A DNA stretch of 64,000 nucleotides from the NCBI RefSeq assembly GCF_056712565.1, contig NZ_CM160072.1. One strand, given 5' to 3'. The notes under the pieces are model-generated. The model ran no database searches. It was given only the letters and a program-made list of their open reading frames with translations, and was not told the DNA's origin. Position 1 is the stretch's first letter; each line of letters begins with the position of its first letter. Positions 17,544 through 34,719 of this stretch are shown in pieces. The position numbers and the translations under genes were made by a program.

Positions 17544-18242
17544 ATGAAACTGCGAAAAACGCCCGTACAGGGGCAGGGCTTCGTTCGGCCTGAAACCAGC
17601 ATGAGCGATATTCTGGTTCGCCACAAAGCGGAGTCGCGCATTGATTCCCGCTTATTTGCTGAGCGTATTGGCATAAAGCACAAAAACCTTTATTCGCTCA
17701 TTCAGAAGCACAAAACCGGATTGCGTGAACTGGGCATCCTTCCGTTTCAAACGGAGCGATTAAAAACCCGTCAAAACGGGGAGCGTGAACATAAGTTTGC
17801 CCTCCTGAATAGCGATCAGTTTGATTACATGTGTCGCATTGTGCGCGGTCGTGATGATGAACGCATGAACCGCTTCAAGCTGGATGTTACGAAGGCATTC
17901 GCAAAACATCGCGCTACCGAGCCTGTACGCCGTGAATATCTGCCAGGCTATCACGAAAGCCGTGACGGGCTTAAAGCACTGGGCGCAGAACGTCACCATT
18001 ACATCAATCTGGCACGCGCAGAGAACCGTGTTACAGGTCTGGTAACTGGCGAACGAGGCACAGCCAGCGAGCAGCAGTTAGGCTTGCTGATTGTCATGCA
18101 GAAAATCGAACAGGCCGCATTTGAGGAGGCGATACAGAACGGCATGACACCTACCGAAGCAGTGCGGGAGGTTGCCCGACGCATGGAGACATTCGCCAGC
18201 CTGATGACATCTGAGCCGTATCTGGGGGTAAATCATGCTTAA
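17544..18242 (+). CDS. phage regulatory protein, Rha-like
   Basis: 232-aa ORF; N-terminal DSRLFAERIGIKHKNLYSLIQKH resembles the Rha family signature. Confidence 0.5.
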   Translation: MKLRKTPVQGQGFVRPETSMSDILVRHKAESRIDSRLFAERIGIKHKNLYSLIQKHKTGLRELGILPFQTERLKTRQNGEREHKFALLNSDQFDYMCRIVRGRDDERMNRFKLDVTKAFAKHRATEPVRREYLPGYHESRDGLKALGAERHHYINLARAENRVTGLVTGERGTASEQQLGLLIVMQKIEQAAFEEAIQNGMTPTEAVREVARRMETFASLMTSEPYLGVNHA

Positions 18243-18978: not shown

Positions 18979-19528
18979 ACCTGTCTTTTATGCCGGGCGC
19001 ACTGAAATCTCTGTCATTAAATTCGATGACATTCAGGTGCGCATAGTGAGTATCAACGGCGAGCCGTGGTTTGTTGGCGCTGATGTGTGTGCTGCGCTGG
19101 AAATCAGCAATGTTACTGATGCTGTTTCAGTTCTGGATAACGACGAGGTAATGACCCTAGCTTTAACCGAGGGGCATTCCGGTAAGCGTGGTGGTGCCAG
19201 AAGCTGGAATGTTGTCTCTGAATCAGGTTTCTACAAACTGATCGCCCGCAGCCGTAAAGCTTCCACACCTGGCACATTTGCGCACCGTTTCAGTAACTGG
19301 GTATTCCGCGAGGTTATTCCTTCAATCCGCAAAACGGGGAGTTATGGTGTTCCGTTTGCCATGCTGAATGATTTCAGTAAACGCCAGGCTGCATATCAAC
19401 AGGAAGCCAGCAAACGCGGTTACAGGTTACAGCAATGCAAAGAGGCAAAAGATGCACTGGAACGAGAAGAGCGGGCGCTATGGCGTAAATATCAGCCTGA
19501 TTTTCTGGAGGGTGAAAGCAATGTGTAA
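18971..19528 (+). CDS. Bro-N domain protein (phage antirepressor-like)
   Basis: 185-aa ORF; FDDIQVRIVSINGEPWFVGADVCAALEISN is a Bro-N-like signature. Confidence 0.55.
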   Translation: MRKPVFYAGRTEISVIKFDDIQVRIVSINGEPWFVGADVCAALEISNVTDAVSVLDNDEVMTLALTEGHSGKRGGARSWNVVSESGFYKLIARSRKASTPGTFAHRFSNWVFREVIPSIRKTGSYGVPFAMLNDFSKRQAAYQQEASKRGYRLQQCKEAKDALEREERALWRKYQPDFLEGESNV

Positions 19529-19696
19529 CGATCCGAACGTTACAGAAAGAAAAAGCGCCCCGTTGCTGGATAACAGGCAAAACAAAGGCGACCGGGATAG
19601 GTCGCCAGTGGGAACAAAGGAAATCAAACGCATCGCCAACAATGCCAGATTTGCGGCTGGTGGGCAATGTGATCAGTGTGCTGGCTTGCTGGTGGG

Positions 19697-19894
19697 CTAT
19701 TCCTGCTCTTTAGCATCGCCATACTGCGATGTTTTCCAGGTATGCGATCCCATTTTTGTGCGCCTGTACTCTTTTAAGAACTTCTCAAGGACAAACGCAC
19801 ATGGCGCAAATCTTTCCTGTTCTTGTTCGCTTACCGCATTTTTGCGTTGTTTTTTCCTGGATGAGGATAATTTCTTTAATGATTTGTCAGTCAT
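19697..19894 (-). CDS. small hypothetical protein (65 aa), tandem paralog 1, C-terminal ...GDAKEQE
   Basis: Same length and C-terminal KEQE tail as neighbouring ORF; 3-prime DNA similarity (tcctgctcttt); leftward, divergent from the replication operon. Confidence 0.45.
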   Translation of the reverse strand: MTDKSLKKLSSSRKKQRKNAVSEQEQERFAPCAFVLEKFLKEYRRTKMGSHTWKTSQYGDAKEQE

Positions 19895-19951
19895 CGTAGA
19901 TACCTGTAACCCTGTGCGCCACAGTTCACCGCACCACGGCGCTGGTGATGG

Positions 19952-20149
19952 TTACTCCTGCTCTTTGGCCTTCCGGCGCTGTTCATATTTTAATTTGCGT
20001 CCACAGGCATCTAAGACCCATGCGGAAAAATTAGCACTAGGATTAGTTAATTTTTCTTGTTCAACACTGGCATCAATCCCATCTATAAGCTCGTGCGGGA
20101 ATCGAATATTTTTCTTTGCTGATTTGTTGTTTGTGTTTCCGCTAGACAT
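19952..20149 (-). CDS. small hypothetical protein (65 aa), tandem paralog 2, possible DNA-binding regulator
   Basis: MSSGNTNNKSAKKNIRFPHELIDGIDASVEQEK...; adjacent to palindromic operator-like sites at 20178..20257. Confidence 0.45.
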   Translation of the reverse strand: MSSGNTNNKSAKKNIRFPHELIDGIDASVEQEKLTNPSANFSAWVLDACGRKLKYEQRRKAKEQE

Positions 20150-20177
20150 TGGTACACCTCACTTAAATGGATTTGAT

Positions 20178-20257
20178 GGGCGCACACAATACAGCAAAAA
20201 AAGTGAGAAGTTAAGTATTGACATGTGCGCACACATGATTTTAATCTGTGCGCACAG
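20178..20257. promoter_or_regulatory. operator-like region: three copies of palindrome TGTGCGCACA (core 20224..20233; perfect 12-bp palindrome ctgtgcgcacag 20246..20257; half-site copy 20178..20188)
   Basis: Read directly; palindromes bracket a near-consensus promoter. Confidence 0.6.
20218..20245 (+). promoter_or_regulatory. candidate sigma70 promoter of the rightward replication operon (TTGACA, 16 bp, TTTAAT)
   Basis: Perfect -35 hexamer at 20218..20223; -10-like tttaat at 20240..20245; overlapped by operator palindromes. Confidence 0.45.
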
Positions 20258-20354
20258 TTTGGGTTGCATTGCTCAAATTAAGCAACGCCCCGCAGTGCTC
20301 GCAACACATGCAGGGCGTCTAACCACCAACGATAGAAAGCGTATCGAGGTAGCT

Positions 20355-20558
20355 ATGTTAAATCATACCACACACCCGCAAGGGCGGGACTCGCACAACC
20401 TGAATAAATACATCTGGCGTTTTATCGCCCTGAGCACCGCACAACCACGCGTAATACACATCGAGGCCGCCAGCGAACAGGAAGCCCGTCAGCAATCCCC
20501 GGCTGGCTGCGTGATGGTATTTACTGCCCGCATCCGTCAGGGGGAATACTATGCGTGA
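20355..20558 (+). CDS. possible small ORF (67 aa) downstream of switch promoter; stop overlaps start of next gene
   Basis: ATG at 20355 in the frame of a long, otherwise implausible ORF-track ORF; translational coupling (ATGCGTGATGA) to the 85-aa gene. Confidence 0.25.
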   Translation: MLNHTTHPQGRDSHNLNKYIWRFIALSTAQPRVIHIEAASEQEARQQSPAGCVMVFTARIRQGEYYA

Positions 20559-20808
20559 TGAACGATTTATTCTTCTGGAGCAAAAATTCAGTGAAGCGCC
20601 AAAAAATGAAATTGATGCTCTTTTGCATATCGCGAATATGCTAAAAGTAGCAACGTTCCTTATAGTTTCGAATCTGGAGCATGAAACGGCGTTAGATATA
20701 CTGAACAGTGCTGTCGATTATTCTGAATATATTGCCGAGGATAAATACAGGCAATTACCAGATTTGTTAGCCCATAAATATAAAGAAGAACCTCACACCG
20801 GGAAATAA
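20551..20808 (+). CDS. hypothetical protein (85 aa)
   Basis: ORF in operon context upstream of replication gene. Confidence 0.45.
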   Translation: MRDERFILLEQKFSEAPKNEIDALLHIANMLKVATFLIVSNLEHETALDILNSAVDYSEYIAEDKYRQLPDLLAHKYKEEPHTGK

Positions 20809-20810
20809 AC

Positions 20811-21113
20811 ATGAAGAAGATTAAATTTACTGGCTTAAATGCCAGCGGACAGACTCACCCGAAAATCAGGATCGGGGATATTTTCCGGGATAAATATGGT
20901 GACAGCGTGGTTATTAATTCCGTGTATGAACGGCACATTACATACCGCCGCGCAGGGTACGACTATGACTGTGTGATGCCCGTTCATCAGTTCCGGCGTG
21001 ATTTTTCACTGGTATGTGCAGTACCACGCAGTAAGCCCACCAGTAAAGAGAAAGCACGGGCAAATATTCAGGTAATAAAGAACATGATTAACGCATTCAG
21101 GGGCAAGAAATGA
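20811..21113 (+). CDS. hypothetical protein (100 aa)
   Basis: ORF tightly packed between 85-aa ORF and replication gene (overlap ATGA at 21110). Confidence 0.45.
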   Translation: MKKIKFTGLNASGQTHPKIRIGDIFRDKYGDSVVINSVYERHITYRRAGYDYDCVMPVHQFRRDFSLVCAVPRSKPTSKEKARANIQVIKNMINAFRGKK

Positions 21114-23236
21114 AACGCGCACCGAATTTAAAGCACCAGCCGAAAGACAAAATGACGGAGGTGATTATCTTTGCGGGTAGTGATGCCTGGGCACATGCGA
21201 AAGAGTGGAGCGAATGGGCCGGAAAGCATATTGCGGCAGATGATACACATCCAGTTATTCTTGGACCGGAACAACTGGCGAGTCTGGCAGACACGCAAAT
21301 CATCGACAAAGGGCGCTATTACGTGCGCGTTTATCGTGCTGGTGAAATATCAGAGCAGCACCTTACACAGATAGCGACACTGCTTGCAGTGGCGGGTGTG
21401 AAGGAGGCGCGTTGCTACCGCAGCTTTGTTGATCAGCAGCCGGAGGACTGGACACCGCGCATGGCTGGACTGAAGGATGATGCGGAACGCGGTAACAGTC
21501 TGGTGATCAACCTTCCGGCGAAGACAAATTTCACCGGAAATTATGATGACGAATTAAAGCCTCGTGTTGAAAGTCGCGTCGATGGTGTTTTCTGGGTAAC
21601 GCCCAAAGTGGACAAGCAGTCAGGCGAAATTATCCGGCCTGAGACGTGGTTATGTTCTCCGCTTGAACTACTGGGAACAGGAACAATCGGCAAAGAGCAT
21701 TACCGCGTGATGCGCTGGAAAAAACCAGCAAACCATGAGGTCATTACAATGGCGGTCCCGTGCGGAGGCATTGGTGACCGTGACGGCTGGCGGTTGCTGA
21801 AAGACCACGGCCTTAACGTGACGACCAACGGCAAATACAGGGCTATCCTGGCTGACTGGATGCAGTTAAGCGGAAACCATGAGGAATGGCAGTTAAGCAC
21901 AACAACGGGGTGGCATTTTGGTGCGTACATCATGCCGGATGGTTCGGTCATTGGTGAATCAGAGAAACCCATCCTGTTTACCGGAAAAACTGCCGCTGTT
22001 AATGGCTATTCCGTGGCGGGAACAGCGGAGGGCTGGCGCGATACCGTGGCACGGCTGGCTGGTGGTAATCCGTCCATGATGCTGGGTGTGGCGGTATCGC
22101 TATCCGCACCATTAATCGGGCTGGTGGGTGCTGACGGCTTCGGGGTTCATCTTTTTGAGCAATCATCAGCAGGTAAAACCACCACACAGAACATTGCATC
22201 AAGTTTATGGGGAGAGCCGGACGCGCAACGGCTGACCTGGTACGGAACGGCGTTAGGTATCGCCAACGAGGCCGAAGCACATAATGACGGGCTGTTACCC
22301 CTGGATGAAATAGGCCAGGCCGGAAACGCGCGGGAGGTGTCCACGTCAGCCTATACGCTGTTTAACGGTTCCGGGAAATTACAGGGGGCGAAGGACGGCG
22401 GCAACAGGGAGATAAAACACTGGCGCACGGTGGCAATCAGCACCGGAGAAATGGACGTTGAAACATTCCTCAAAACGGAAGGGATAAAAATTAAAGCGGG
22501 GCAGCTTGTCCGTCTGCTTAACGTGCCGATGGAAAAGGCATCGCAGTTTCACGAATACAGCACCGGAAAGGCGCACGCAGACGCGTTAAAAGATGCCTGG
22601 ACAGAAAATCACGGGGCGGCAGGTCGTGAGTGGGTTAAATGGCTGGCAGGTCACCAGCAGGAGGCAAAGGACGCGGTAAGGGCATGTCGCGAGCGGTGGC
22701 GCAACCTGATACCGGAGAGCTACGGCGAGCAGGTTCACCGTGTGGGGGAAAGATTCGCCGTACTGGAGGCCGCGCTTGTGCTTTCCGGTCATGTTACAGG
22801 CTGGGATGTTCAGGCGTGCCGTGATGCAGTTCAGCATAACTTTAATGCCTGGGTGAAGGAATTCGGCACGGGCAACAGGGAATTTAAACAGATGGTTGAA
22901 CAGGCTGAGGCGTTTTTGTCGTCGTTCGGGTTCAGTCGATACCTTCCCTATCCAAACAGCGACGAGCGTGATTTACCGATTAAAGACCTTGCCGGATACA
23001 GAAAGGGGAGTATCAGAAACGAAGATGACGAGTTCCGTTTTTACACGTTCCCGCATGTGTTTGAGGGTGAGATAGCACAGGGATTTAATCCGTCTCACTT
23101 TGCCCGCGCGTTGAGTGCTGCCGGAATGCTGGAAGCGGGAGGCGACCGCCGTTACAAGAAAAAGGCGCTCGGCAGGATTGGCGGGAAGCAGCATATTTTT
23201 TACGTGCTGATGTTCCAGCCTGAAGCAGAAGATTAA
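21110..23236 (+). CDS. putative replication initiator: primase/helicase-like protein with P-loop motif (possibly DUF927-type)
   Basis: 708-aa ORF; P-loop-like FEQSSAGKTTTQ; followed immediately by iteron-like repeats and ssb. Confidence 0.55.
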   Translation: MKRAPNLKHQPKDKMTEVIIFAGSDAWAHAKEWSEWAGKHIAADDTHPVILGPEQLASLADTQIIDKGRYYVRVYRAGEISEQHLTQIATLLAVAGVKEARCYRSFVDQQPEDWTPRMAGLKDDAERGNSLVINLPAKTNFTGNYDDELKPRVESRVDGVFWVTPKVDKQSGEIIRPETWLCSPLELLGTGTIGKEHYRVMRWKKPANHEVITMAVPCGGIGDRDGWRLLKDHGLNVTTNGKYRAILADWMQLSGNHEEWQLSTTTGWHFGAYIMPDGSVIGESEKPILFTGKTAAVNGYSVAGTAEGWRDTVARLAGGNPSMMLGVAVSLSAPLIGLVGADGFGVHLFEQSSAGKTTTQNIASSLWGEPDAQRLTWYGTALGIANEAEAHNDGLLPLDEIGQAGNAREVSTSAYTLFNGSGKLQGAKDGGNREIKHWRTVAISTGEMDVETFLKTEGIKIKAGQLVRLLNVPMEKASQFHEYSTGKAHADALKDAWTENHGAAGREWVKWLAGHQQEAKDAVRACRERWRNLIPESYGEQVHRVGERFAVLEAALVLSGHVTGWDVQACRDAVQHNFNAWVKEFGTGNREFKQMVEQAEAFLSSFGFSRYLPYPNSDERDLPIKDLAGYRKGSIRNEDDEFRFYTFPHVFEGEIAQGFNPSHFARALSAAGMLEAGGDRRYKKKALGRIGGKQHIFYVLMFQPEAED

Positions 23237-23260
23237 CTTCCCTGTGTGAGGTAAAAAGTT

Positions 23261-23383
23261 GCGGGTTATGCGGGTTATCCTGTGCATAAGTTAATTAACT
23301 GCATGATTAAAAAGGAAATCAATAACCCGCACGTAACCCGCAAAACGGCAGTTATAACCCGCAAATGTGCGATTGTAACCCGC
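23261..23383. repeat. iteron-like cluster 1: two direct GCGGGTTAT copies (23261..23278) plus four inverted (A/G)TAACCCGC copies (23322..23383); candidate origin
   Basis: Read directly from sequence; between the replication protein gene and ssb. Confidence 0.7.
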
Positions 23384-23446
23384 AAAATTTCACTGTAAGA
23401 GTGTAAACAAGCGTAACTATCACGTTAAAACCGGAGAACAAACAGC

Positions 23447-23869
23447 ATGACGGCGCAAATATCAGCTTACGGGCGGCTGGTGGCTGACCCGCAGTTAAAG
23501 ACCACCAGCAAGGGCACACAAATGGCGATGGCGAGTATGGCGGTCCCCCTTCCATGCAATCAGGCAGATGACGGAACGGCGACGATGTGGTTATCCGTCC
23601 TGGCGTTTGGCAGACAGGCCGACGCACTGGCAAAACACCACAAAGGCGAACTGGTGAGCGTGGCGGGTAACATGCAGGTAAGCCAGTGGACAGGCCAGAA
23701 CGGCGAAACGCGGCAGGGCTGGCAGGTTATCGCAGACAGCGTAATCAGTGCGAGAACGGCGCGACCGGGCGGCAAAAAAGGCCAGCAAGGGCAGGCTACT
23801 GACGCACTGAACAGGGCAAAACAACAGGCGGGTAACGACGATCCGTACGGGGACGGGATACCGTTTTAA
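23447..23869 (+). CDS. ssb: single-stranded DNA-binding protein (SSB)
   Basis: 140-aa ORF with OB-fold-like N-terminus, Gly/Gln-rich linker and acidic C-terminal tip ...DDPYGDGIPF typical of SSB. Confidence 0.75.
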   Translation: MTAQISAYGRLVADPQLKTTSKGTQMAMASMAVPLPCNQADDGTATMWLSVLAFGRQADALAKHHKGELVSVAGNMQVSQWTGQNGETRQGWQVIADSVISARTARPGGKKGQQGQATDALNRAKQQAGNDDPYGDGIPF

Positions 23870-23905
23870 TTCACAACAGCGAACAGAGTAATTACAGGGG
23901 AAGGC

Positions 23906-24403
23906 ATGACAAAGCTGACCATAAACAGAAAACCGAAGGGCATTTACGGCACGCCGCAGAAAACAGCACAGGCGGCGCAGCAGCAGAATAAAACCACATC
24001 GGCGCATAAAGTGATGCCAGATAACCAGAACACACAGCAGAAGCTCACAGGAGCAACACCGCGGCGGCGTATGACCAAACAGCAGCGTAAAAACCGCAGA
24101 CGCGTTAACCGTCTTATTGAGCTATGGCCTGAATTATTCAGCCCGGAATCACCTAAGCCGCTTAAGGTGGGGATATTTGACGACCTGATACAGGATATTG
24201 CCGCGAGAGGTATTTCACTCGGACAGGGAACACTACGCGCAACGCTGGCGCGTTATGTGCAGACTCCGCGCTATTACCGCGCCCTGGTAGCTGGTGGCGC
24301 GCGTTACGACCTGAAAGGCCAGCCGTGCGGCGAGGTAACACCACTACAACAGACGCACGCAGGAAAACTACTGGAGGAGATGAATGGAAATAGTAAGAAA
24401 TGA
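23906..24403 (+). CDS. FinO/ProQ-domain RNA-binding protein
   Basis: 165-aa ORF; [82 protein letters not shown] matches the FinO/ProQ N-terminal domain pattern (PLKIGI...LR.AL..YT.S..YL....GA.R.DL.G...G.V). Confidence 0.7.
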
Positions 24404-24800
24404 TCACGCACATGGTCGCCGTGCAGGTGATCACATTGTGGATGAAATGGCGGAAAAACAAAGAGTTGACATTATTGTCAGTGTCACAGTCGAGAGCGCG
24501 AAGCGCCAAAATAAGCGTATAAATGATCGTTCAGATGTACATGGTGTGATCACTCGTTTACGCCAGACTTTTGTAACTCGTGAAGAGATGATTGAAGCTA
24601 TTGACCAGCATACAGCATGTATCAGCGTCAGGGATATACCGGAGGTCATTGCTAACTACTTCATGATCACCAGACGCCTTTACCGGAGAAAAGACAAGAG
24701 CACGGTTAACCGTCTCCTGATGTCTGATATTCGCGAATACCTGCAAGAAAGGGGCTATGTGAATCCACCAGAACAGCGCTACGGAAGAGTCGGAGGCTAA
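24384..24800 (+). CDS. hypothetical protein (138 aa), start overlaps FinO-like gene
   Basis: ORF with 20-bp overlap with upstream gene; no family recognised. Confidence 0.4.
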
Positions 24801-25166
24801 CTAAAACCCTGTACCGAAGAGCGGCGGCGCGATGGGGTGAAGTAATGCAGTTGGGAAACTGATAAGGAACGGTATTACATATCAATGCGACGACTGGAAT
24901 GTTCCAGGAAGGCACAGAGGCCACCGAAGCAACCGGATAATTTAGAAGACCTGAAACGGTCGCTTAAACGCACTGAAAAAGAAATGGGGATAGATGGGAT
25001 CGGGAAATCAGTATGGCGTAACTACCAGAAGTAAGCACAGAGCCGGAGCAATCCGGCTTTTTTTGGGGCTGAAATCAATCAATCTGTTTTTGTGATAGAA
25101 ATATGTTTATCTACCACTTTTTCAGATCAATAATGTGCATAGTTTAGTCAGTAAGAGGAAATTGCT

Positions 25167-25373
25167 GTGAATTGTATTAACGACCTGAACACAGGCGATG
25201 TCAGAGGTGGTTCCGTTCATCTGGATGCACAGACCGTGATGCGCATTAAGCAGTACAGAATCGACCATGTGAACAATCACCCTGATCAGCCATTACCAGG
25301 CGTGGCGCAGATTGTCAGACATGCCGTAAACGCCTGGCTTAATCAGAATGGTTTTGCATCGGGGGGTGAGTAA
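25167..25373 (+). CDS. small hypothetical protein (68 aa) upstream of large-protein operon
   Basis: ORF only; GTG/ATG start ambiguous. Confidence 0.3.
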   Translation: MNCINDLNTGDVRGGSVHLDAQTVMRIKQYRIDHVNNHPDQPLPGVAQIVRHAVNAWLNQNGFASGGE

Positions 25374-25469
25374 TGAATCGCTGGTACAGCATCAAAGCAG
25401 AGGGACGCCAATGTTATCTAACTCAGGTTTTATGAATTCTGACTCCCGATTCAAAATAGGAGGTTACTA

Positions 25470-28001
25470 ATGCCAGTCGTACCAACAGTATCCGGACGTC
25501 AGGTTGAGAGCCGTGGAGTTCAGTCAGCAGGCTTGCAGACGTTTTCTCAGCCAGGTATTAGTGATGCTTTTGTTCGTGCAGGAGCAGAGGCAATTGATGT
25601 TCTGGGTCAGGCAAAACAGCGTGCCAATATTGCCTTGGTTCAGGAGGCATCCCTTAAACTCAGTCAGACAGGCAGTGATCTGCTGAATAATCCTGAAACA
25701 GGATTGCTTAACCTGAAAGGGAAAAATGCTATTGGAAAAGGCCATGAGTATACGCAGCAGTTTGATGCTCAGGTCGAACAACTGGCTATGTCGCTGCCGG
25801 ATGAACAGGCCCGTAATGCTTTCATGCAGCAGGCACAGCAGCAGCGCATTCAGTTCACTACGCAGGCCGGGCGGTACGAGATCGGGCAAATAAATGCCTA
25901 CGAAGAAGGCCAGTTTCAGGCTACGCTGCTGAACAATGGTAAAAATGCCGCAGCATTGTATGGCGACAACGCCGCATACGTATTGGCTAATAAGCAAACT
26001 TTCCAGCAAATTGAGGAGTACGGCATTGCGCATGGCTGGAGCGACGAGCAGATTCGGGCCAGGAAAATCGAGTTTAAAGAAGCAACAGCAAAAGCAACTG
26101 CTCAAAATGCTATTGGAGCAAACTATCTTCAGGTAAGACAGCAAAACGGCGAGTTAAGCGATACTGCTGCTGGAGCTCGCCGTGCTGTAGCAGATAGTGG
26201 ATCTTCCGATCGTACCCGCGGTATACGCAACAATAACCCCGGCAATCTTGAATACAGCAAAACTAATCCGTGGGTTGGGCAGACTGGTGATGATGGTCGC
26301 TTTGCTAAATTCGAAACACCTGAACACGGTATTCGTGCATTAGGGCGGAACCTGATGTCGTATCAGCGGCAGGGTATTGATACCGTCAGCGAGATAATTA
26401 ATCGCTGGGCACCGCCTACTGATAAAAATGACACTATGTCGTATATCAAAGCAGTGTGCGAACAACTTGGCGTTTCTGCTGATGATCCTATAGATGCATC
26501 TAATCCGGATACCCTGAAGGCGCTTTGTGCAGCCATTATCCATCATGAAAACGGTAGCCAGCCATACAGTGATCAGCAGTTAACTGCAGGTGTTAGTGCT
26601 GCGCTGGGGCTTTCTCAGCTACCGACAAAAAATAAACGTTATACCGGTGTAGCCTGGTTCGATGCTTTAAGTGAATCGGATCAGGCCAGCGTGTTGCGAC
26701 AGACTGATGCACTAGCCAGACAACAGCAGGCTGAATATAAAACGATGCTCGACAGCCAGGTTCGCGATGCGACAGCTGCGTATATGCGTGGCGTTGAATT
26801 TCCTAACCCACCAGGTGAGGCTGATTTTATTGCAGCTTATGGCGTCAGAGAAGGAAACCTGCGATATACCGAGTTCAGAAATACGCAGATCGCCGGACAG
26901 TATATAGGCTCTTTCCGCAACATGCCGACAAGCAGCATTACCGCATATGTTGAGCAATTGCGCCCGGATACTGGTGAAACAGGGGAGGGGTATGCGTCTC
27001 GTGCGAAGTTATTCGACCGGGTATCGGCGGCAGCCACGAAGGTAATAACCCAGAGGCAGAATAATCCGTTTAGTGCAGCGGTGGAAATCGGAGCCTATAA
27101 GCCGATCACCAGCAACAACCCTGACGACATCACTGCCGAGGTGGCTAACCGTTTCTCGTCGCAGGAAAGCTTACGCGCGTTGGGAATTAATGCCCCAATC
27201 CTCAACAGTGAAGAGGCGGCTGCGCTGGCACAGCAGGTGCGCGGCACTCAAAACGTTGACCAGACAATTAAACTGTTGCAGAGCATGGGGGAAAAGCTAC
27301 CTGCGCCAGCAATACGGCAGGTGGCATCTGTAATTGCTCCGAACAGTGCAGCAACAGCCTATTCTGCGCTGCTGCTGGGCACGCCGGATAATCAGTACGA
27401 TAACACCAGGCCGTCGATCCCATATAGTCAGTTCATCGGGTATAAGCCGACGATGAACAAGTACGACGTTGCAAAGGTTATTCTTTCCGGTGACCAACTA
27501 CTGAATCCGACGAAGGCTATGAAGAATGCGGGCATAACTCCGGTACAGTTGCCGAGCGAAGATAAAATGAAGCGCGCTTTCGACGAACAGGTTGGTAATG
27601 CATTTGCCCGTAACCCAGAGACGCGCCAGATCAGTTATAGCCTTTTCAAAGCCGCTTACGCAGGAATCGCTTATCAGTCTGGTAATGCGTCTATGACGAG
27701 CACAGATGCGGTTAACTCCGATGTGGCGGAGAAAGCTGCGCAGTACGCAACAGGCGGTGTATACAAGAGATTTAATGGTGGTGATGTTGTAATGCCTTTC
27801 GGCATGGATGAATCCACTTTCAAAGATCGCTATACCACATCAGCGAAACAAGCACTGAAAGATGCCGGACTTAACGTAAATGCAGTGTCAAACTTCACAC
27901 CAGTTAATATCGGCAATAACCGGTATCGGCTGGTAAATGGTAGCGGACGCTGGGCAACAGATCCCAGAACCAATGAAGCTATTGTCGTGAGGGTTGAATA
28001 A
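25470..28001 (+). CDS. large hypothetical protein A (843 aa), Q/A-rich, with conserved central segment GIRNNNPGNLEYSKTNPWVGQ...WAPPTDKNDT...HHENG
   Basis: Strong SD (aggagg) 8 nt upstream of ATG; stop overlaps next start (TAATG). Composition resembles phage internal virion / ejection or polyvalent proteins; no family confidently assigned. Confidence 0.6.
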   Translation: MPVVPTVSGRQVESRGVQSAGLQTFSQPGISDAFVRAGAEAIDVLGQAKQRANIALVQEASLKLSQTGSDLLNNPETGLLNLKGKNAIGKGHEYTQQFDAQVEQLAMSLPDEQARNAFMQQAQQQRIQFTTQAGRYEIGQINAYEEGQFQATLLNNGKNAAALYGDNAAYVLANKQTFQQIEEYGIAHGWSDEQIRARKIEFKEATAKATAQNAIGANYLQVRQQNGELSDTAAGARRAVADSGSSDRTRGIRNNNPGNLEYSKTNPWVGQTGDDGRFAKFETPEHGIRALGRNLMSYQRQGIDTVSEIINRWAPPTDKNDTMSYIKAVCEQLGVSADDPIDASNPDTLKALCAAIIHHENGSQPYSDQQLTAGVSAALGLSQLPTKNKRYTGVAWFDALSESDQASVLRQTDALARQQQAEYKTMLDSQVRDATAAYMRGVEFPNPPGEADFIAAYGVREGNLRYTEFRNTQIAGQYIGSFRNMPTSSITAYVEQLRPDTGETGEGYASRAKLFDRVSAAATKVITQRQNNPFSAAVEIGAYKPITSNNPDDITAEVANRFSSQESLRALGINAPILNSEEAAALAQQVRGTQNVDQTIKLLQSMGEKLPAPAIRQVASVIAPNSAATAYSALLLGTPDNQYDNTRPSIPYSQFIGYKPTMNKYDVAKVILSGDQLLNPTKAMKNAGITPVQLPSEDKMKRAFDEQVGNAFARNPETRQISYSLFKAAYAGIAYQSGNASMTSTDAVNSDVAEKAAQYATGGVYKRFNGGDVVMPFGMDESTFKDRYTTSAKQALKDAGLNVNAVSNFTPVNIGNNRYRLVNGSGRWATDPRTNEAIVVRVE

Positions 28002-30061
28002 TGTCTGATGTTTTTTCTTTGGCTCCAGAAGGTCAGGCATGGATTGACGACAAAACAGTTGCCAACCCAGCAAGGCCAGAAGACTACGATCCGACTCCCT
28101 TCCAGGGTTCAGGTACTGCACTTTTGAGCGGCGTGGCGGAGGGGGCTCTCGGTCTCGCGCAGTCTGCCGTCGGATTCAGCAAGCGCCTGATTAGCGATCC
28201 GGCATTTACCGCAGACGTGGCACCGACTGTTAATATTTTTCGGGAGATGTTCCCTGATGCTGACAAAACACTGAATGATACATACGACACGATCGGAAAA
28301 CAGTTACAGGATGCCCGCAGCTATGTGAAGCCTGATGCAGGCAGTCAGGGAATGGCGGCTGAGGTATTAAATGAGCTTGGTAAATTTGTTCCTGCAATCG
28401 GAACAACTATGTTTGGCGGTCCCCTCATCGGCGCTGCTACAGCTTTCAGTTCTACGTATGAGCAGTCCTATCAGGATTTTAAAGGGAAGGGAGTAGACGA
28501 GGCTACGGCGCGTAACCTGGCAACGCAGCAAAGCCTTTTCAATGCTGTGGGTATGGCCTTACCCGCTGCCGTCGGCACCACACTGGCAACGCGCATTGCC
28601 TCAGGTGTGGCAATCAACACCGGATTCGGTGGACTGAACCGTTACTCTGTCGGCGCAACACTGGAGGAAAAAGGCTACACGGAGATGGCAAAACAGTACC
28701 GGGTATTTGACGGTCAGGCGATGTTAGTCGATGCCGTTTTAGGCGGGGTCTTTGGTGGCGTTCATCACCTGACTACCCATAATAACCATGATGGTACAGA
28801 GTCGAACATTTCTGCAGAAGAAATAAAATCAACTTTTGGTGAACATTATCAGCAATCTCCTGATGGTAACATTGAGTCAATGGTTCGTGATTTATCTGAT
28901 TCAGGAGTAATAGAACTTATTAATGAACCAGCAATAAAAAATAGTGATGGAGAAATACTTCTGAATAAAGGTCATGTGACAGTAGCTTCTGGAAAAGAAC
29001 CAATAATAAGAATAAATATTAATGGATTAAAAGATCATGAAGAACTGTTAGAAACCCTTCATCACGAGGCGCTTCATCTTGAGCAGCGCCATTACCCTGA
29101 CTGGAAGGCCAGAAAGCTAGCTAATGCTGTACTTAAATCTGCAAACAAGCATTCTGACTATCCTGAATTTGCATATGGGATGTCACAATATTATGAATAT
29201 AAGAAAAGGGGTGAGTACCCTGAAACATATCCTGAGTGGTTGTACGCTGAAGAAGTTGCCGCACATGCAGTAAATCCATCTCTAAAGACAAGCGTTTCAT
29301 CATGGGAAAAAATTATTTCAGGTTTTAAAGCCTATATATTCAGATACAGTGGTATTCAGGTTGGAACCGTTACACCTGAGCAGTTACGGTTACTCGTAAG
29401 TATGCGTCTTCGCAATATGAAACTGGAAGCCGCAGTCGAAAAAGTTTTTGGTATCCGGGCAAGGGAAAGAATAAAACCAAGCGATATTGATGCAGCCCAC
29501 ATTTTGAATGAGGGGCTTCATTACGATATTGAATCGTCACCAGTGCTTCACACCAGCAATGAGAGCATCAACAGCCATGTTGACGCCATGGATGAAGCAT
29601 ACAGGCAACTTAATGATGGTCAGCCTGTAAATGTTGGGGGGATGGCGCGAGGGCTTGATGGTCCATTGCGATCAGATATATCTGATACTTACCAAGAGCA
29701 ATACCATGAAATACAAAAGGTTTTTGAAGAAAATGGTGTCAGATATGAAACATCATCAGAGCCAATTAGTGAATCGCCTGTCCCTCGTGCTGAAAGTGCT
29801 TTCTCATCGGCTGGTGAACACAGAGGGGACGTCAGCGTTGATCCAGATACAGGGCAGGTTCTCTCATCCAACAGCTATGACCTTATGGCTGCCAGAGACA
29901 TGGCTGTTGCCAATCCTGAGCTGACTATAGCTCACCCGGAAACCGGAAACCCGACAAAACTTTCTGATCTCCTGGCTGAGTTGGATGAACAGATTAAGAC
30001 AGTCCAGAACGAATCGAAGGTTTATTCTGTAGCGGCAGCGTGCTTCTTGAGGAACCCATAA
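28001..30061 (+). CDS. large hypothetical protein B (686 aa) with glycine-zipper-like hydrophobic N-terminal region and HExxH zinc-metallopeptidase motif (LHHEALHLEQRH)
   Basis: Translationally coupled on both sides; HEALH motif encoded within a conspicuously AT-rich segment (about 28790..29350). Confidence 0.6.
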   Translation: MSDVFSLAPEGQAWIDDKTVANPARPEDYDPTPFQGSGTALLSGVAEGALGLAQSAVGFSKRLISDPAFTADVAPTVNIFREMFPDADKTLNDTYDTIGKQLQDARSYVKPDAGSQGMAAEVLNELGKFVPAIGTTMFGGPLIGAATAFSSTYEQSYQDFKGKGVDEATARNLATQQSLFNAVGMALPAAVGTTLATRIASGVAINTGFGGLNRYSVGATLEEKGYTEMAKQYRVFDGQAMLVDAVLGGVFGGVHHLTTHNNHDGTESNISAEEIKSTFGEHYQQSPDGNIESMVRDLSDSGVIELINEPAIKNSDGEILLNKGHVTVASGKEPIIRININGLKDHEELLETLHHEALHLEQRHYPDWKARKLANAVLKSANKHSDYPEFAYGMSQYYEYKKRGEYPETYPEWLYAEEVAAHAVNPSLKTSVSSWEKIISGFKAYIFRYSGIQVGTVTPEQLRLLVSMRLRNMKLEAAVEKVFGIRARERIKPSDIDAAHILNEGLHYDIESSPVLHTSNESINSHVDAMDEAYRQLNDGQPVNVGGMARGLDGPLRSDISDTYQEQYHEIQKVFEENGVRYETSSEPISESPVPRAESAFSSAGEHRGDVSVDPDTGQVLSSNSYDLMAARDMAVANPELTIAHPETGNPTKLSDLLAELDEQIKTVQNESKVYSVAAACFLRNP

Positions 30062-32817
30062 TGAAACAGGCATGTGTTGAAGCTATTGCGCAGACACTTG
30101 GTCGCCAGCCAAAGGCTGATGAGCTGAAAAATATCGAAGATCGTATCAAAGAAGCAGTGCAACATGTGCACAGAAAGAATGCAAAAGAAGGCAAAAGTGG
30201 TATTCCTGATGCTCAAACATACATGGATGCTGCAGAACTGGTACGCCAGCGTGTGGTTCATGATGTGTACAAGAAAAGACAGCGTGTTGCCCAGAATGCG
30301 ATCGCCATCAGTAAAATTACTGACACTCTCGATGCTAACATCCCGCCTGATCAGCAGACACCTGTTAATTTGCAGCAGTTTATTTTTGCTGGCCGACGAT
30401 CGAGAGACAAAGCTGATATCTCCGTTGCTTCTGCTGAAGAGCTTGCAATTGGGGCATATCAGGACTGGTCCCGTCAGCTCAGTGCTGAACTTCTAAAAGC
30501 AGGTGATGACGTCCGCAAATTCTTCGAGCAGAGCAGGGCGCTTGGAGAGCAGCGGTTTCGGAGTGTATTCGACAGGCAGGCGGCAAAGTCTGCACAACTC
30601 CAGATCCTGAAAGAAATTTATGGCGAAGATACCGGGAATCCCCTGGCGAAGAAAATTGCACAGATTTGGAAGGATGTAACAGGCCGTGTTCGTCATGAGA
30701 TGAACGACAACGGCTTTGACATAGGCCTGCGAGAAGACTGGCATACGCCATATGTGGATGATGCTGACCTTATTCGCAATGCCGGGCGCGAAGAATGGCT
30801 GGCATCGTTACCAGTGGCAGAGCAAGCTACAGCACGTCTTTCAGGTCGCCAGCCACCGATTGAGTTTGCCCGCCAGAAATGGGTTGATGACGCTTACAAC
30901 ACGCAGGATCGCAGCAATTACGTTAATCCTGACGGCAGCATTATGAATGACGTCGAGTACCGTCAGGCACTGGAAGCGATCTTTGAAACGAAGGCCACTG
31001 ATGGGGCAAACAAAATTGAGCCCGGTACATTTATGGGAGCCGGAGGAATAAAGAGCCGTGGTTCTCAGCACAGGGTGATGGCGTTCAAGGATGCGCAGTC
31101 ACACTTCGCCTATATGGAGCGATACACTCAGCAGCCGCTGGTGGGGGTGATGATGTCGCACCTGCAATCATCATCCAGGGATTTGGGCGTCGTTAAAGCC
31201 TTTGGTCCGGACGCCGAAAGAAACTTTTCCCTGGTACTGGATCGCATCTATAAGCGCGCAGTAACAGGCGGGAAACGCAAAAAAGAAATGGAGGATGAGG
31301 CCAAATTAGTAGCCCGTATGTTCAACTCAATGGCTGGCCTAAATGGTGTCGCTTCATCGAGTGTGTTCTCTTCAGCTGTTGGTGGTCTGCGTAACCTGAT
31401 GACCAGCGCCATGCTTGGCACCAGCGTACTGACAGCAACCAGCGACCAGGCAATTATGCGGGCAAATGCGCAGGCGCTGGGCTTTACCCGTGGTGGAATG
31501 CGGCTTTCCGTTAACACTATCAAAAACCTGTTTAGTGGAGATGCCAAAAAGGCGAATGCTGAACTCGGTCTGCTGGTGGATTCACATGCTGCTGTGGTTT
31601 CGAAAATGGGCGGGTTTGACTTGTCTCGCGGCATAACTGGCTGGTTCGCAGAGAAGACACTGAAGTGGTCCGGGCTGATCGCTATGGACCGCGCAAACAA
31701 AGCGTCGTTTGGTCTCCTGATGTACAAAAACATTGGCGAGCTGACCAGAAAATTTAAGACGCTGGACGATATGAAAGGAACCGATAAAACCATTCTGGCT
31801 AACAAGGGATGGAGCAATGAGGACTGGGCCATCATGGCAGCGGCAGAACTCAGGCCGATGACTACTGCCGGGCATATGGGGATGACGCCAGACGCGATTT
31901 ACGCTGTGCCCGATAACGTAATCGCCGACATTATGGCAGACCGTATTACCCGGATTCGTGCCGGGAGTGAAAAGGCACTGGCAGCACTTGGAGATCTCCC
32001 TCCAGAACGCCTGAAACGGATGAAAGAAGCATTCGACGCTGAGGCTGAGCAGACCATCACGCGCATGATTCGTAATGCACGCGCTGAAGCAGCCCATAAA
32101 TTGCTGGGAATTACGCACGGTGAGATGACCAATGCTGTGACCACCGCTACGGGTATTGATACATATGCCCGTGATGATGCTGGCGAGTTAATGAAGAGCT
32201 TCATGCTCTTCAAAACAACCCCATTTGCTGGATTTCGGCAACTTGTTAACAGAACACGGGATTTGGACACCGTTCCGGCCATTAAATTTCTGGCCTCATA
32301 TATCGGGGGAACAACTCTTGCTGGTATGTTTGCGATCCAGATGAACAGTTTGTTAAATGGTAATGATCCGCTGGATATGACAAAACCAACCACATGGGTT
32401 CAGGCTTTACTGAAAGGTGGTTCGTTCGGTATCTACGGTGATTTTATTTTCCAGGACCATACGCAATATGGCTCCAGCATCGGTGCCACTATGGGTGGCC
32501 CTGTGTTGAGCTTTGCAGAGCAGTTAACAAAATTACTGATTACTAACCCACAGAAGGCTCTACAGGGTGAAGAAACATCATTCGGTGCCGATGCACTGAA
32601 AACAGCCCGCATGATCACCCCATTCGCAAACCTGTGGTATGCGAAAGCGATAACCAATCACCTGATATTGCAACAACTTCAGGAGATGGCAAACCCTGGT
32701 TACAATGATCGAGTAAGGGACCGCGCGCAACGGGAGTTCGACATAACGAGTTGGTGGGAACCGGGTGCTATTGCGCCACGTAGAGCACCGGATTTTGGAA
32801 AGGCGGTAGGGGAATGA
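30061..32817 (+). CDS. large hypothetical protein C (about 918 aa)
   Basis: ATG at 30061 overlaps stop of protein B (TAATG); ORF track offers an upstream GTG at 30040. Stop overlaps start of the next small ORF (ATGA). Confidence 0.6.
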   Translation: MKQACVEAIAQTLGRQPKADELKNIEDRIKEAVQHVHRKNAKEGKSGIPDAQTYMDAAELVRQRVVHDVYKKRQRVAQNAIAISKITDTLDANIPPDQQTPVNLQQFIFAGRRSRDKADISVASAEELAIGAYQDWSRQLSAELLKAGDDVRKFFEQSRALGEQRFRSVFDRQAAKSAQLQILKEIYGEDTGNPLAKKIAQIWKDVTGRVRHEMNDNGFDIGLREDWHTPYVDDADLIRNAGREEWLASLPVAEQATARLSGRQPPIEFARQKWVDDAYNTQDRSNYVNPDGSIMNDVEYRQALEAIFETKATDGANKIEPGTFMGAGGIKSRGSQHRVMAFKDAQSHFAYMERYTQQPLVGVMMSHLQSSSRDLGVVKAFGPDAERNFSLVLDRIYKRAVTGGKRKKEMEDEAKLVARMFNSMAGLNGVASSSVFSSAVGGLRNLMTSAMLGTSVLTATSDQAIMRANAQALGFTRGGMRLSVNTIKNLFSGDAKKANAELGLLVDSHAAVVSKMGGFDLSRGITGWFAEKTLKWSGLIAMDRANKASFGLLMYKNIGELTRKFKTLDDMKGTDKTILANKGWSNEDWAIMAAAELRPMTTAGHMGMTPDAIYAVPDNVIADIMADRITRIRAGSEKALAALGDLPPERLKRMKEAFDAEAEQTITRMIRNARAEAAHKLLGITHGEMTNAVTTATGIDTYARDDAGELMKSFMLFKTTPFAGFRQLVNRTRDLDTVPAIKFLASYIGGTTLAGMFAIQMNSLLNGNDPLDMTKPTTWVQALLKGGSFGIYGDFIFQDHTQYGSSIGATMGGPVLSFAEQLTKLLITNPQKALQGEETSFGADALKTARMITPFANLWYAKAITNHLILQQLQEMANPGYNDRVRDRAQREFDITSWWEPGAIAPRRAPDFGKAVGE

Positions 32818-33155
32818 AAAAGTTAAATACACCAACCAAAAGAGTTGGGGGGCTTCTGATTGTCATTGGAATTATATTTATACTTGCATCTATAATAGAA
32901 ATATCAAGTAATGAGTTTGCTATTTCTGATAGTCCATATTATCGATCGCTAAATGCATATGATATTATTTTTATGTATTTAGAGCGAATTACAGATACTT
33001 TCATCATGACTCTAACATTTCAAACATGGAGTAGCCGTTTCAGTATATTAATGTTAGTAGGGTTTTGTTTATTTATTGTTGGTGTTCTTATTTCATATTT
33101 TTACGATGCTGGAATTGGCAGGGTTGTTAAGTGGATAAGAACGGGTAATTGGTGA
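32814..33155 (+). CDS. small hydrophobic protein (113 aa, two predicted TM segments), AT-rich gene
   Basis: Start ATG overlaps stop of protein C; hydrophobic stretches GLLIVIGIIFILASII and FSILMLVGFCLFIVGVLISYF; markedly lower GC than flanks. Confidence 0.5.
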   Translation: MKKLNTPTKRVGGLLIVIGIIFILASIIEISSNEFAISDSPYYRSLNAYDIIFMYLERITDTFIMTLTFQTWSSRFSILMLVGFCLFIVGVLISYFYDAGIGRVVKWIRTGNW

Positions 33156-33237
33156 TTATAAGCAAGCTATTGGTTTCATTGTTTATATCGTTGTCGGAAC
33201 TTTTTCAACTGACAGCAATCATAGCCGGGCTTGAATC

Positions 33238-33528
33238 GTGGTGGGGATTGCACTGGATAATTGCAGCCCCATTGCTTTCATCGTGAGCTATATTCCATTT
33301 GTTGGAGCGATTGTTGGTATGGTTGGCGCTATGGATGTATGGTGTTGGGAGTGGTGGCAGGCTGGCCTTCTATTCTTTGGTGGATCATCTTTGCTATTGT
33401 CAGCGGTGGAATGTCATCATTTTTCGAATGGCTATCATTCAGAAAAAGAGCGTGACATGTCACAGGCCGCTTTCGCGGCCTTGTTTTTAACGAATGCCAC
33501 CGCCGCCCGGGCGGGAATCCGCAGATAA
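33238..33528 (+). CDS. possible small membrane protein (96 aa); reading frame uncertain (three overlapping ORFs)
   Basis: Hydrophobic segments; alternative frames 33261..33455 and 33299..33490 also open. Confidence 0.3.
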   Translation: MVGIALDNCSPIAFIVSYIPFVGAIVGMVGAMDVWCWEWWQAGLLFFGGSSLLLSAVECHHFSNGYHSEKERDMSQAAFAALFLTNATAARAGIRR

Positions 33529-34156
33529 AAAAGCCCGCTGCACGGTTTTATTAATACTTATACCATTAGGATTGATCCTTCAATGGACAATCCTTCCATC
33601 GTGTGGCCAGCCATTCATATTCTTTGTCTTTTCTTCAGTACCGGCTTTGCATCTTCTACACCCTGAAAGATGTCGTTTTATGGTGTATCTGATGATTTAT
33701 TCCCTAACAATAGATATTCGAAAAATTAATCAGTTAAAACAATTATTTGGATAATTTCAGGTAAAAACTATCTTAATCTTCTGGTGGATCTCAATGCGCC
33801 GTGACGGTATCGGGATTAAGGGCGTGGATATTCGCGATATATGCCGCTACACCCCTCAACAGTAATAGATATGCGCTTTTCACGCTCTCCTTTCACTGCT
33901 GAGAACGGCAACAACGTGCCACAGGAACGCGCTGTAATCGATTCTGACGCACTTAATTGCGTTGGGTAATGGTTTGCCAGCCTGTGGGGGTAACTCTGTT
34001 TTATGAGGCTTTGGCTATAGTGCAAAAATGCACTTTGTCTTGCCTCTCAATTTGATGAGACTGGAACGACAACAGGACAGACCACCAGCAACAGTTACCG
34101 TATTCAGCCGTTCTGTGGCACCAGTGGAACTATCCACCCCTGCTTTCAGCAATGTG

Positions 34157-34311
34157 TTTGCGGGTTATTTTGGGGCGTTTGCGGGTTATTTGGGATGTTT
34201 TGCGGGTTATGCGATGCTTGAATAATGAACAGTGCATTTTGCAACATATTGATACTAAAGAACAAAAAATAGTTAGCACACTAAGATAACCCGGTAACCC
34301 GCATAACCCGC
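34157..34311. repeat. iteron-like cluster 2: three direct TTTGCGGGTTAT copies at 21-bp spacing (34157..34210) plus three contiguous inverted TAACCCG(C/G) copies (34286..34311)
   Basis: Read directly; same 9-mer as cluster 1, about 11 kb away near the right end of the element. Confidence 0.7.
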
Positions 34312-34695
34312 ACTGTTTTGTATATATATACGAAAAATTGCATTCAGGAGGGGGGATCGAAATCCCTACAACCCATTGCTTATGGGACCGCCGCCTCGTC
34401 AAATTTTTACACCCGCGAAATAAAAAATACTTCACGCTGGTGGGCATGATGCTGATATGAGAGGCTTCCATAACGCCACCATTCGAAACTATGCAAATCT
34501 GCATAGAAAAGGGGATGCCTGATACAATACCCTCGCCCGATAAAATCACACCGATAAACTCATCTGCCACGAGTAGAAAGAGCGAACGAACCCGATACGC
34601 AGTAATGCTGGTCGGGTCCAGCTTTTTAAGGCGGCTGTAGATATCAGGCCATCCGTGATCATCCACCAGCGTAATTGCTGAACGCTTTAAAAAAA

Positions 34696-34719
34696 CGTGT
34701 ACATAAGGGTGTACATAAT
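34696..34719. repeat. right boundary repeat of integrative element (putative attR or arm-type sites): cgtgtacataagggtgtacataat
   Basis: 22 of 24 identity with 14783..14806, direct orientation. Confidence 0.6.

Follow-up and report, generated by a model that had tools for sequence, protein, structure and literature searches.

A predicted zincin-like metallopeptidase domain in an apparently acquired cassette of an epsilon15 gp16-type protein, carried on a satellite-like island of Escherichia coli

The DNA analysed here (the window, 64,000 nucleotides of contig NZ_CM160072.1, RefSeq assembly GCF_056712565.1) is Escherichia coli chromosome, and contains within an integrated 19.9-kb island a gene for a 686-amino-acid (aa) protein, hereafter protein B, which is homologous to gp16 of the Salmonella phage epsilon15, a member of the genus Uetakevirus. 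The AT-rich middle of this gene (28771-29470) appears to be a horizontally acquired cassette that stands in place of the variable central linker of an epsilon15-gp16-type podophage internal/ejection protein, and it encodes a predicted metallopeptidase domain. A compositional break, the replacement of the centre of gp16 by the cassette, homology to a domain of polyvalent phage proteins, conserved motifs, purifying selection and a zincin-like predicted fold are all observed. We therefore favour, with a probability of about 0.7, the reading that a zincin-type peptidase is carried on an ejection protein by way of a horizontally acquired cassette and is injected with it, its activity and its substrate being predicted.

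An earlier note, made from the letters alone, had pointed to an AT-rich segment of roughly 560 bp (28790-29350) within a gene of otherwise high GC, and suggested that an HExxH metallopeptidase-like domain had been acquired there by recombination into a carrier protein. The AT-rich stretch is borne out: in 200-bp windows the GC content falls from 0.52-0.57 (28400-28800) to 0.335-0.41 (28800-29500), the DNA run quoted in the note was located at 28781-28833, and the quoted peptide, ...INGLKDHEELLETLHHEALHLEQRHYPDWKARKL..., is in frame within the 686-aa open reading frame (ORF) 28001-30061. The discontinuity spans about 28771-29470 (~700 bp), which is wider than the limits given; the shorter segment takes in the HExxH motif and a conserved Glu pair, and leaves out a C-terminal motif, GxQxGxxTPxQLR (29351-29389). 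The remainder of the gene is not high in GC either, since its ~47-53% is ordinary for E. coli phage DNA. With the segments delimited by homology, the GC content and the GC content of third codon positions (GC3) are 0.532 and 0.51 in the N-terminal part (28001-28771), 0.382 and 0.258 in the cassette (28772-29470), and 0.467 and 0.413 in the C-terminal part (29471-30061). The cassette differs from its flanks by Fisher's exact test both at third positions (GC3 0.258 versus 0.468, p = 7.5e-8) and at all positions (p = 1.3e-7), and equally AT-rich 699-bp windows make up 2.3% of the surrounding island and 4.1% of the 64-kb window. The left edge is sharp, with the cumulative-sum (CUSUM) maximum at 28778 and the epsilon15 DNA alignment breaking right after CATCACCT, the codons for HHL; when the island is compared by blastn with the complete epsilon15 genome, the match ends at 28770 and picks up again at 29470. 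A gene overlapping the cassette in another frame or on the other strand was considered and rejected, as no ORF of at least 80 aa overlaps the cassette except the main one. GC contents of 0.34-0.35 are also seen in two more kilobases of the window, which are chromosomal and lie outside the island (1-2000 and 62001-63000).

The gene is 100% identical over 28001-30061 in several E. coli strains, such as ExPEC XM (NZ_CP025328), where the RefSeq annotation names the product only 'hypothetical protein' (WP_021543042.1). A tblastn search against phage genomes matched protein B to epsilon15 gp16 in two pieces that jointly cover 66% of the query. The ends of the gene are ~76-79% identical to epsilon15 at the DNA level, and the N- and C-terminal parts of the protein share ~80-85% aa identity with gp16. 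The N-terminal part, which has four to five moderately hydrophobic segments in a hydropathy scan, is common to the gp16-type proteins of many podophages (phrog_1145, E = 1.9e-136). In epsilon15, gp13 and gp14 ('internal virion proteins') lie upstream, and gp16 has gp15 (842 aa, lytic-transglycosylase-like) on one side and gp17 (918 aa) on the other. Protein B is thus of the gp16 type by homology of both its ends and by its position between homologs of gp15 and gp17. Domain swapping is a recognised theme among ejection proteins (reviewed by Swanson, Hou & Cingolani 2022, PMC8954989).

The suggestion that the domain was acquired by recombination is supported by other gp16 homologs, which have an unrelated central cassette or none. 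Residues 1-257 and 491-686 are near-identical in the homologs of epsilon15, Enterobacter phage BUCT554 and Klebsiella phage ST11-OXA245phi3.2, and nothing aligns between them. Epsilon15 and ST11-OXA245phi3.2 have an unrelated Pro/Ala-rich cassette of 181-183 aa at this position, complete E. coli Uetakevirus prophages have the same type (~181 aa), and BUCT554, like most database homologs (521 aa), has merely a 68-aa linker. The GC content of the alternative central segments compared is normal (about 0.56-0.59); only the peptidase cassette is aberrant. Nearly all of 420 database homologs are 521 aa or ~629-636 aa long, and a length of 686-690 aa occurs in only two clusters. From these three length classes it follows that the centre of gp16 is a dispensable, swappable slot, and that the present allele holds a third kind of filler.

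Homologs of the module were detected only as domains of giant 'DarB-like' polyvalent proteins carried in virions, which makes the polyvalent phage proteins named in the earlier note an apt comparison. The first lead was a weak match to phrog_10089 ('DarB-like antirestriction'; profile positions 3417-3613 of 4647, E = 1.9e-4), and the second came from weak tblastn matches to giant proteins of Ralstonia, Klebsiella, Serratia and Ochrobactrum podophages; in every one of the translated giant-protein regions, HExxH lies ~60 residues upstream of the matched stretch. The domain can be aligned over its whole length (~190 aa), with D-G, DG-I, HExxH, W, EExxA(Y/H), W, K and GxQxGxVTPxQLRxL in common, and pairwise tblastn/blastp matches to the polyvalent-protein domain reach E = 8e-9 to 4e-7 in single comparisons. 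In Ochrobactrum phage POI1126, the domain sits between Pfam LPD3 and LPD39 and is itself uncovered by any Pfam model. A tblastn search with this POI1126 domain returned 56 phage records, all from Bcep22-like podophages of ~60 kb bar one distant match in the 49.5-kb uncultured phage MW202426; the carriers include Bcep22 gp75, BcepIL02, DC1, JC1, Ralstonia GP4-like phages, Klebsiella Lastavirus, Serratia Parlo, Pseudomonas Itty13 and Skulduggery. Scanning IMG/VR added 80 domain loci, mostly on 55-65-kb contigs. Apart from one other gp16 homolog, the family was found only as a module of giant Bcep22-like DarB-like proteins. One protein among the tblastn matches, the 4,515-aa DarB-like JC1 gp69, has been detected in purified virions by mass spectrometry with 51 unique peptides (PMC9144972). 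Weak PHROG matches centred on HExxH (aa 328-411, ~28982-29233) were also obtained to phrog_10499 (E = 5.5e-4), phrog_16532 and phrog_16003, whose profiles have 138-158 positions; judging from these matches, the small stand-alone phage proteins of these three families of unknown function may belong to the same zincin-like family.

That the cassette encodes an HExxH metallopeptidase-like module agrees with an alignment of 82 homologs, in which HExxH and the downstream EExxA are invariant, although peptidase activity itself is a prediction. The invariant residues are H355, E356, H359, E417, E418, A421, Q453, G455 and P459, and W368, K443 and G451 are at least 98% conserved; this conservation is partly ascertained, because the IMG/VR retrieval patterns contained HExxH or EExxAY, and the tblastn-derived set, which is free of that ascertainment, agrees with it. 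The Glu pair E417-E418, a candidate for the third metal ligand, follows HExxH by 58 residues. The giant protein of the distant phage (MW202426.1, 17719-24108) has a second, different HExxH region upstream (LLHEIQHNIQ...EGFARGG).

AlphaFold predicted the domain with a mean confidence (pLDDT, predicted local distance difference test) of 65 from 11 sequences and of 88.7 from 32 sequences, the latter with a predicted template modelling score (pTM) of 0.83. The model begins with a helix (7-16) and strands 20-23, 40-43 and 51-55, followed by a helix (62-80) that bears HExxH; two inserted helices, a helix (128-143) with the Glu pair and two further helices make up the second half. As in the zincin superfamily, HExxH lies on an alpha-helix, and the core consists of an N-terminal helix, a mixed beta-sheet and the active-site helix. 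This topology agrees with that described for the metallopeptidase (MPTase) domains of polyvalent proteins, in which an N-terminal helix flanks a beta-sheet and the helices bearing HExxH and the Glu come next, separated by inserts that vary (Iyer et al. 2017, PMC5512222). The solved structures that the model matched are mostly zincin peptidases: CapP (5.4), PprI/IrrE (5.2), the predicted zincin 3e11 (5.2), EcxA (5.1), the lethal-factor-like domain of Certhrax (5.0), lugdulysin (5.0) and ArdC (4.7), with TTHA0227, ADAM17, ADAM8, lethal factor, PPEP-2, PPEP-3, Wss1, Spartan and projannalysin lower in the list. The model is read as a zincin-like fold, remote from every solved family, for which metal binding and catalysis are predicted, and its HExxH on one helix with the invariant EExxA on a later one would be the gluzincin arrangement.

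Table 1. Coordinates in the window of the protein B gene, its cassette and their surroundings
Feature	Position	Strand	Basis
Protein B gene, 686 aa, with putatively foreign central cassette	28001..30061	+	ORF list; epsilon15 gp16 homolog
AT-rich, putatively foreign cassette, aa 258-490, 233 codons: short linker, then zincin-like domain	28771..29470	+	GC/GC3; without counterpart in epsilon15-type gp16
Core of predicted zincin-like metallopeptidase domain, aa 288-478	28862..29434	+	
HExxH motif, H355-E356-A-L-H359	29063..29077	+	Translation; H, E, H in 82/82; on model helix 62-80
Invariant Glu pair E417-E418 (EExxA), candidate third metal ligand	29249..29254	+	82/82; on model helix 128-143
C-terminal domain motif G451-x-Q-x-G-x-V-T-P-x-Q-L-R463	29351..29389	+	Q453, G455, P459 in 82/82; others at least 88%
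Conserved N-terminal part, aa 1-257, Gly/Ala-rich	28001..28770	+	blastn to epsilon15 ends at 28770
Conserved C-terminal part of gp16-type proteins, aa 491-686	29471..30061	+	Protein alignment; epsilon15 blastn resumes at 29470
Epsilon15 gp15 homolog, 843 aa, lytic-transglycosylase region, upstream neighbour	25470..28001	+	80% aa identity over full length; phrog_992, phrog_1044
Epsilon15 gp17 homolog, 918 aa, downstream neighbour	30061..32817	+	89% aa identity over full length
Integrated island with the cassette gene, 19.9 kb	14783..34719	.	24-nt direct repeat 14783-14806 / 34696-34719; between yicC and dinD

Several points weigh against an injected peptidase. The cassette shares just 18-26% identity with the polyvalent-protein domain, and sequence searches gave no recognised family: Pfam had no match for protein B, for the POI1126 fragment across the domain or for any of the 32 aligned members, the NCBIfam search of protein B gave only noise, searches of the Protein Data Bank sequences with two domain profiles and the full protein gave nothing meaningful, and an exhaustive phmmer search of 1.84 billion representative proteins, with the cassette as query, turned up a 74-aa fragment of protein B itself and nothing else. 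The 80 IMG/VR sequences were fetched by HExxH or EExxAY patterns, with the domains anchored on HE..[HQ], and two distant relatives deviate from HExxH, with HEVGIH in MW202426 and HEAFQ in the metagenomic fragment P0003; an HExxxH variant has been described for some polyvalent-protein MPTases (Iyer et al. 2017, PMC5512222). Epsilon15 gp16 is itself named only 'hypothetical protein' in RefSeq, and a literature search gave no paper on its function, its presence in the virion or its ejection. The measure of selection given next is also rough.

The sole divergent carrier of the cassette is a 690-aa gp16 homolog, P0008, on the Logan contig L021 (SRR29202206, 11,049 bp). It is 71% identical to protein B overall and 60% in the cassette, and retains HHEALHLEQR, EEVAAHAV and G-Q-G-TPEQLR. 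Between the two cassettes, pN (nonsynonymous differences per site) is 0.25 and pS (synonymous) is 0.74, corresponding to a dN/dS of ~0.09, a rough value because dS is saturated. As P0008 keeps the motifs at 71% identity and its cassette is likewise shifted towards AT, the insertion appears to be old, kept by selection and incompletely ameliorated; from this comparison, the acquisition would not be recent. On L021 the gene order is gp13-gp14-gp15-gp16-gp17, followed by genes for a 112-aa membrane protein, a DUF4760 protein, a BRO-N protein and a Rha-like protein, and no tailspike gene lies within 2.4 kb; this contig may be a phage or another satellite.

The cassette might instead be a catalytically inert spacer, that is, a folded linker of suitable length like the Pro/Ala-rich cassette of epsilon15, with HExxH as an inherited relic. 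A spacer would have no need of the HExxH and Glu residues, yet H355, E356, H359 and E417/E418 are invariant in the 82 sequences despite an overall identity of 18-26%, and the same residues are kept between two gp16 carriers that differ at 40% of their cassette residues under the low dN/dS given above. Of the alternatives this is the one that fares best, and we consider it unlikely.

An intact cassette gene, at least 99% identical, is present in 36 of 5,426 complete E. coli genomes. The 90% cluster of protein B has 339 members named E. coli or E. albertii, and an identical protein is on record for E. marmotae. A further 17 E. coli genomes have an epsilon15-type gp16 without the cassette; the one inspected among them, strain ET358, has a Uetakevirus prophage that is complete, terminase, portal, capsid and tail genes included. 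Searches for a closer donor or for more carriers yielded only known alleles or nothing: IMG/VR peptide scans gave copies of 97-100% identity, a degenerate DNA pattern for YPDWKARKLANAV had no match in GTDB representative genomes and in metagenomes matched the E. coli allele only (at least 99% identity), and a word-indexed protein search had no match with the cassette alone and four fragments with the alignment profile. Because the cassette identity is only 18-26%, the Bcep22-like phages are not its direct donor, and by this measure these GC-rich phages would be relatives of the domain and not its source.

In all three genomes inspected, the cassette gene lies in an island of ~19.9 kb, about half the length of the epsilon15 genome, and not in a prophage. 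According to the RefSeq annotation of an identical region and PHROG matches, the island contains genes for a tyrosine integrase, helix-turn-helix (HTH), Rha, Ant and BRO regulators, an Icd-like protein, a DUF927 primase, a single-stranded DNA-binding protein (SSB) and a ProQ-like protein, together with a PerC pseudogene and gp15-gp17. A blastn comparison of the island with the entire epsilon15 genome shows similarity in gp15-gp17 only; this block is all that the island has from the phage, with none of the genes for gp13, gp14, capsid, portal, terminase, tail or tailspike, and its other half has no phage match at the DNA level except for 150 bp. An integrase, regulators, a primase-replication module and attachment-site repeats, without capsid, terminase or tail genes, are the gene content of satellites of the PICI (phage-inducible chromosomal island) or P4-like type. 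By blastn, each of the 36 complete genomes with the island matched epsilon15-type gp16 at a single place, and a second copy was detected in none. The island fits a phage satellite with its helper's ejection-protein genes, which would depend on that helper. Literature searches found no description of satellites that carry the ejection-protein genes of their helper.

Islands were found at two sites with two different integrases, namely between yicC and dinD and in a tRNA-Gly gene next to actS. Among the other copies (NZ_CP051738 975161-1011221; NZ_AP038810), the tRNA-Gly/actS site is used with a different integrase, and in a variant copy at yicC/dinD a GIY-YIG nuclease gene has taken the place of the AntA/B gene and gp17 is followed by another small gene. 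From the two sites and the swapped accessory genes it follows that the island belongs to a family of mobile, mosaic elements.

Several other features of the island deserve mention. Directly after gp17, ORF 32814-33155 encodes a 113-aa protein with hydrophobic segments; the 112-aa protein encoded after gp17 on L021 is a 51%-identical homolog, and epsilon15 has nothing similar after its gp17. The product may be a partner of the peptidase-bearing gp16. Just upstream of gp15-gp17, ORF 24384-24800 (138 aa) has a partial match to phrog_1711, a terminase family, and a match to an antirepressor family, and ~150 bp of its DNA are 83% identical to the 'Pac1' feature of Escherichia phage vB_EcoM-673R5; it may be related to the packaging of the island. 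Near the right end of the island, at 34156-34213, a 21-nt repeat (GTTTGCGGGTTAT...) occurs three times in tandem, and an exact 14-nt copy of the repeat (TTGCGGGTTATGCG) lies just after the primase gene at 23259-23272; they look iteron-like and are a candidate origin or binding site. Next to the integrase gene, ORF 16129-16779 (216 aa, phrog_30524), without a PADLOC match, is the most AT-rich part of the island (GC ~0.36) and looks like a separately acquired cargo gene.

How would such a peptidase act? By analogy with polyvalent proteins, gp16 most likely serves as a chassis that would bring a zincin-type peptidase into the capsid and then into the recipient cell. The chimeric gp16 would be packaged into a helper capsid together with its partners gp15 and gp17 and expelled with the DNA at infection, and the peptidase domain would then be active in the recipient envelope or cytoplasm. 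There it may either process gp16 itself or its partners in ejection in cis, or, at an early stage of infection, cleave a protein of the host or of a competitor. That the chimeric gp16 is packaged and injected, binds metal and has proteolytic activity is inferred, as are its substrates. For the MPTase domains of polyvalent proteins, both self-processing and attack on host proteins have been proposed (Iyer et al. 2017, PMC5512222). We tentatively go one step further, to a picture that we regard as possible rather than probable: the island would be a new kind of satellite of epsilon15-like (Uetakevirus) podophages, which uses the capsid, portal, tail and packaging of its helper and brings its own gp15-gp17 ejection trio, one member of which carries an injected zincin protease acting at entry on a host or helper target. 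Such a target might, as a speculative example, be a defence protein, or a repressor cleaved in the manner of ImmA/IrrE/CapP-type peptidases.

The same gene content admits a different role, in which the island's gp15-gp17 set poisons or re-programmes helper virions or their ejection machinery and so favours the island over its helper. Satellites commonly encode helper-interfering proteins, these genes lie on a satellite-like island without capsid or packaging genes, and at 80-89% aa identity the products are close enough to the phage proteins for co-assembly with helper parts. However, gp15-gp17 are all full length and conserved like functional virion proteins, a PADLOC search of protein B and seven island neighbours gave no match to a defence model, and on L021 homologs of gp13 and gp14 precede the cassette, as they would in the structural operon of a phage. 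Interference is to our minds improbable, somewhat more so than an inert spacer.

We give very little credence to the idea that the AT-richness is not foreign at all and stems from the local amino-acid content, or from selection that favoured, for example, little mRNA structure or H-NS binding, in an ancestral segment since lost from other lineages. The cassette is indeed rich in Glu, Lys, Ile, Asn and Tyr, which lowers the GC content of first and second codon positions, and the bias persists in the divergent L021 copy (GC 0.445 versus 0.505 and 0.514 in the flanks) despite saturated synonymous sites. Yet the biggest drop is at synonymous third positions, the homologs of the cassette lie in unrelated giant proteins of other phage groups and not in gp16 relatives, hundreds of gp16 homologs have no cassette, and the junctions are sharp. 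Finally, we regard it as highly improbable that the island is what remains of a decaying prophage, with the gene as a non-functional leftover: most phage genes are missing and the PerC gene is marked frameshifted by RefSeq, but in 36 complete genomes the genes for gp15, gp16 and gp17 are all intact, with an identity of at least 99%, there are two attachment sites with different integrases and swapped accessory genes, the non-structural half resembles no phage compared while the epsilon15 similarity begins and ends exactly at gp15 and gp17, and the cassette is under purifying selection.

Proteins co-injected with phage DNA are the first weapons of a phage or satellite, and few have been characterised. 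In protein B, a compact structural ejection protein appears as the chassis for an effector-type domain that is otherwise seen only in giant polyvalent virion proteins, and the cassette defines a zincin-like family absent from domain libraries. The case is a tractable one, in E. coli, with a 686-aa carrier, and alleles with no cassette or with another cassette occur naturally and can serve as controls. If the satellite picture is true, bringing its own ejection proteins would be a new strategy of a satellite towards its helper, no earlier satellite being known to equip helper particles anew with delivery and effector proteins that it encodes itself; the system would also help to find out what the centre of gp16-type proteins touches in an infected cell.

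Among known systems, the closest in domain type are the zincin MPTases of polyvalent proteins (PF18818), whose archetypes are the C-terminal domain of ArdC, P1 DdrB and N4 vRNAP (Iyer, Burroughs, Anand, de Souza & Aravind 2017, PMC5512222). The cassette family lies outside PF18818 MPTase-PolyVal, to whose hidden Markov model it gave no significant match, and has a signature of its own: a W after HExxH, EExxA(Y/H) and GxQxGxVTPxQLRxL. It also sits in the middle of a structural ejection protein and is not strung among enzymatic domains. Protein B combines one predicted enzymatic domain with the structural and membrane-active parts of an ejection protein, among the virion genes gp15 and gp17, and Pfam, PHROG and NCBIfam searches detected no second enzymatic domain in it. 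The same invariant residues occur in the DarB-like or 'PLxRFG' giant virion proteins (Bcep22 gp75, JC1 gp69, Ralstonia GP4, Klebsiella LASTA/ZX1, Serratia Parlo, Ochrobactrum POI1126), which differ in being multi-enzyme proteins (methylase, helicase, transglycosylase) of 3,000-4,600 aa from 55-65-kb, mostly GC-rich phages, whereas protein B has 686 aa and no other enzymatic domain.

Polymorphic toxins, the other comparison drawn in the earlier note, likewise join a conserved carrier to a swappable, compositionally distinct cassette, but here the analogy fails. The cassette is central (aa 258-490 of 686) and not C-terminal, the next gene is the gp17 homolog, no adjacent immunity gene was found and no secretion or trafficking domain was identified; delivery would be by a phage particle. 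We therefore rejected a polymorphic toxin.

In gene order, the island block resembles the gp13-gp17 internal/ejection block of Uetakevirus, with protein B in the same position between gp15 and gp17 homologs. It differs from epsilon15 gp16 in having a 233-aa peptidase-like cassette instead of the 181-aa Pro/Ala-rich one, and from the Uetakevirus block in that the island copy is without gp13, gp14 and the capsid, portal, terminase and tail genes. The island shares with PICIs and P4-like satellites an integrase, HTH/antirepressor regulators, an Icd-like protein, a primase-helicase, direct repeats, a length of ~20 kb and several attachment sites; in contrast to them, no gene for capsid-size redirection or a small terminase was recognised in it, apart from the partial terminase-like match of ORF 24384-24800. 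Zincin MPTase domains in proteins delivered together with DNA, and mosaic ejection proteins, are already known; new here are an unmodelled domain family, its place in the central slot of a gp16-type protein and its carriage on a satellite-like island.

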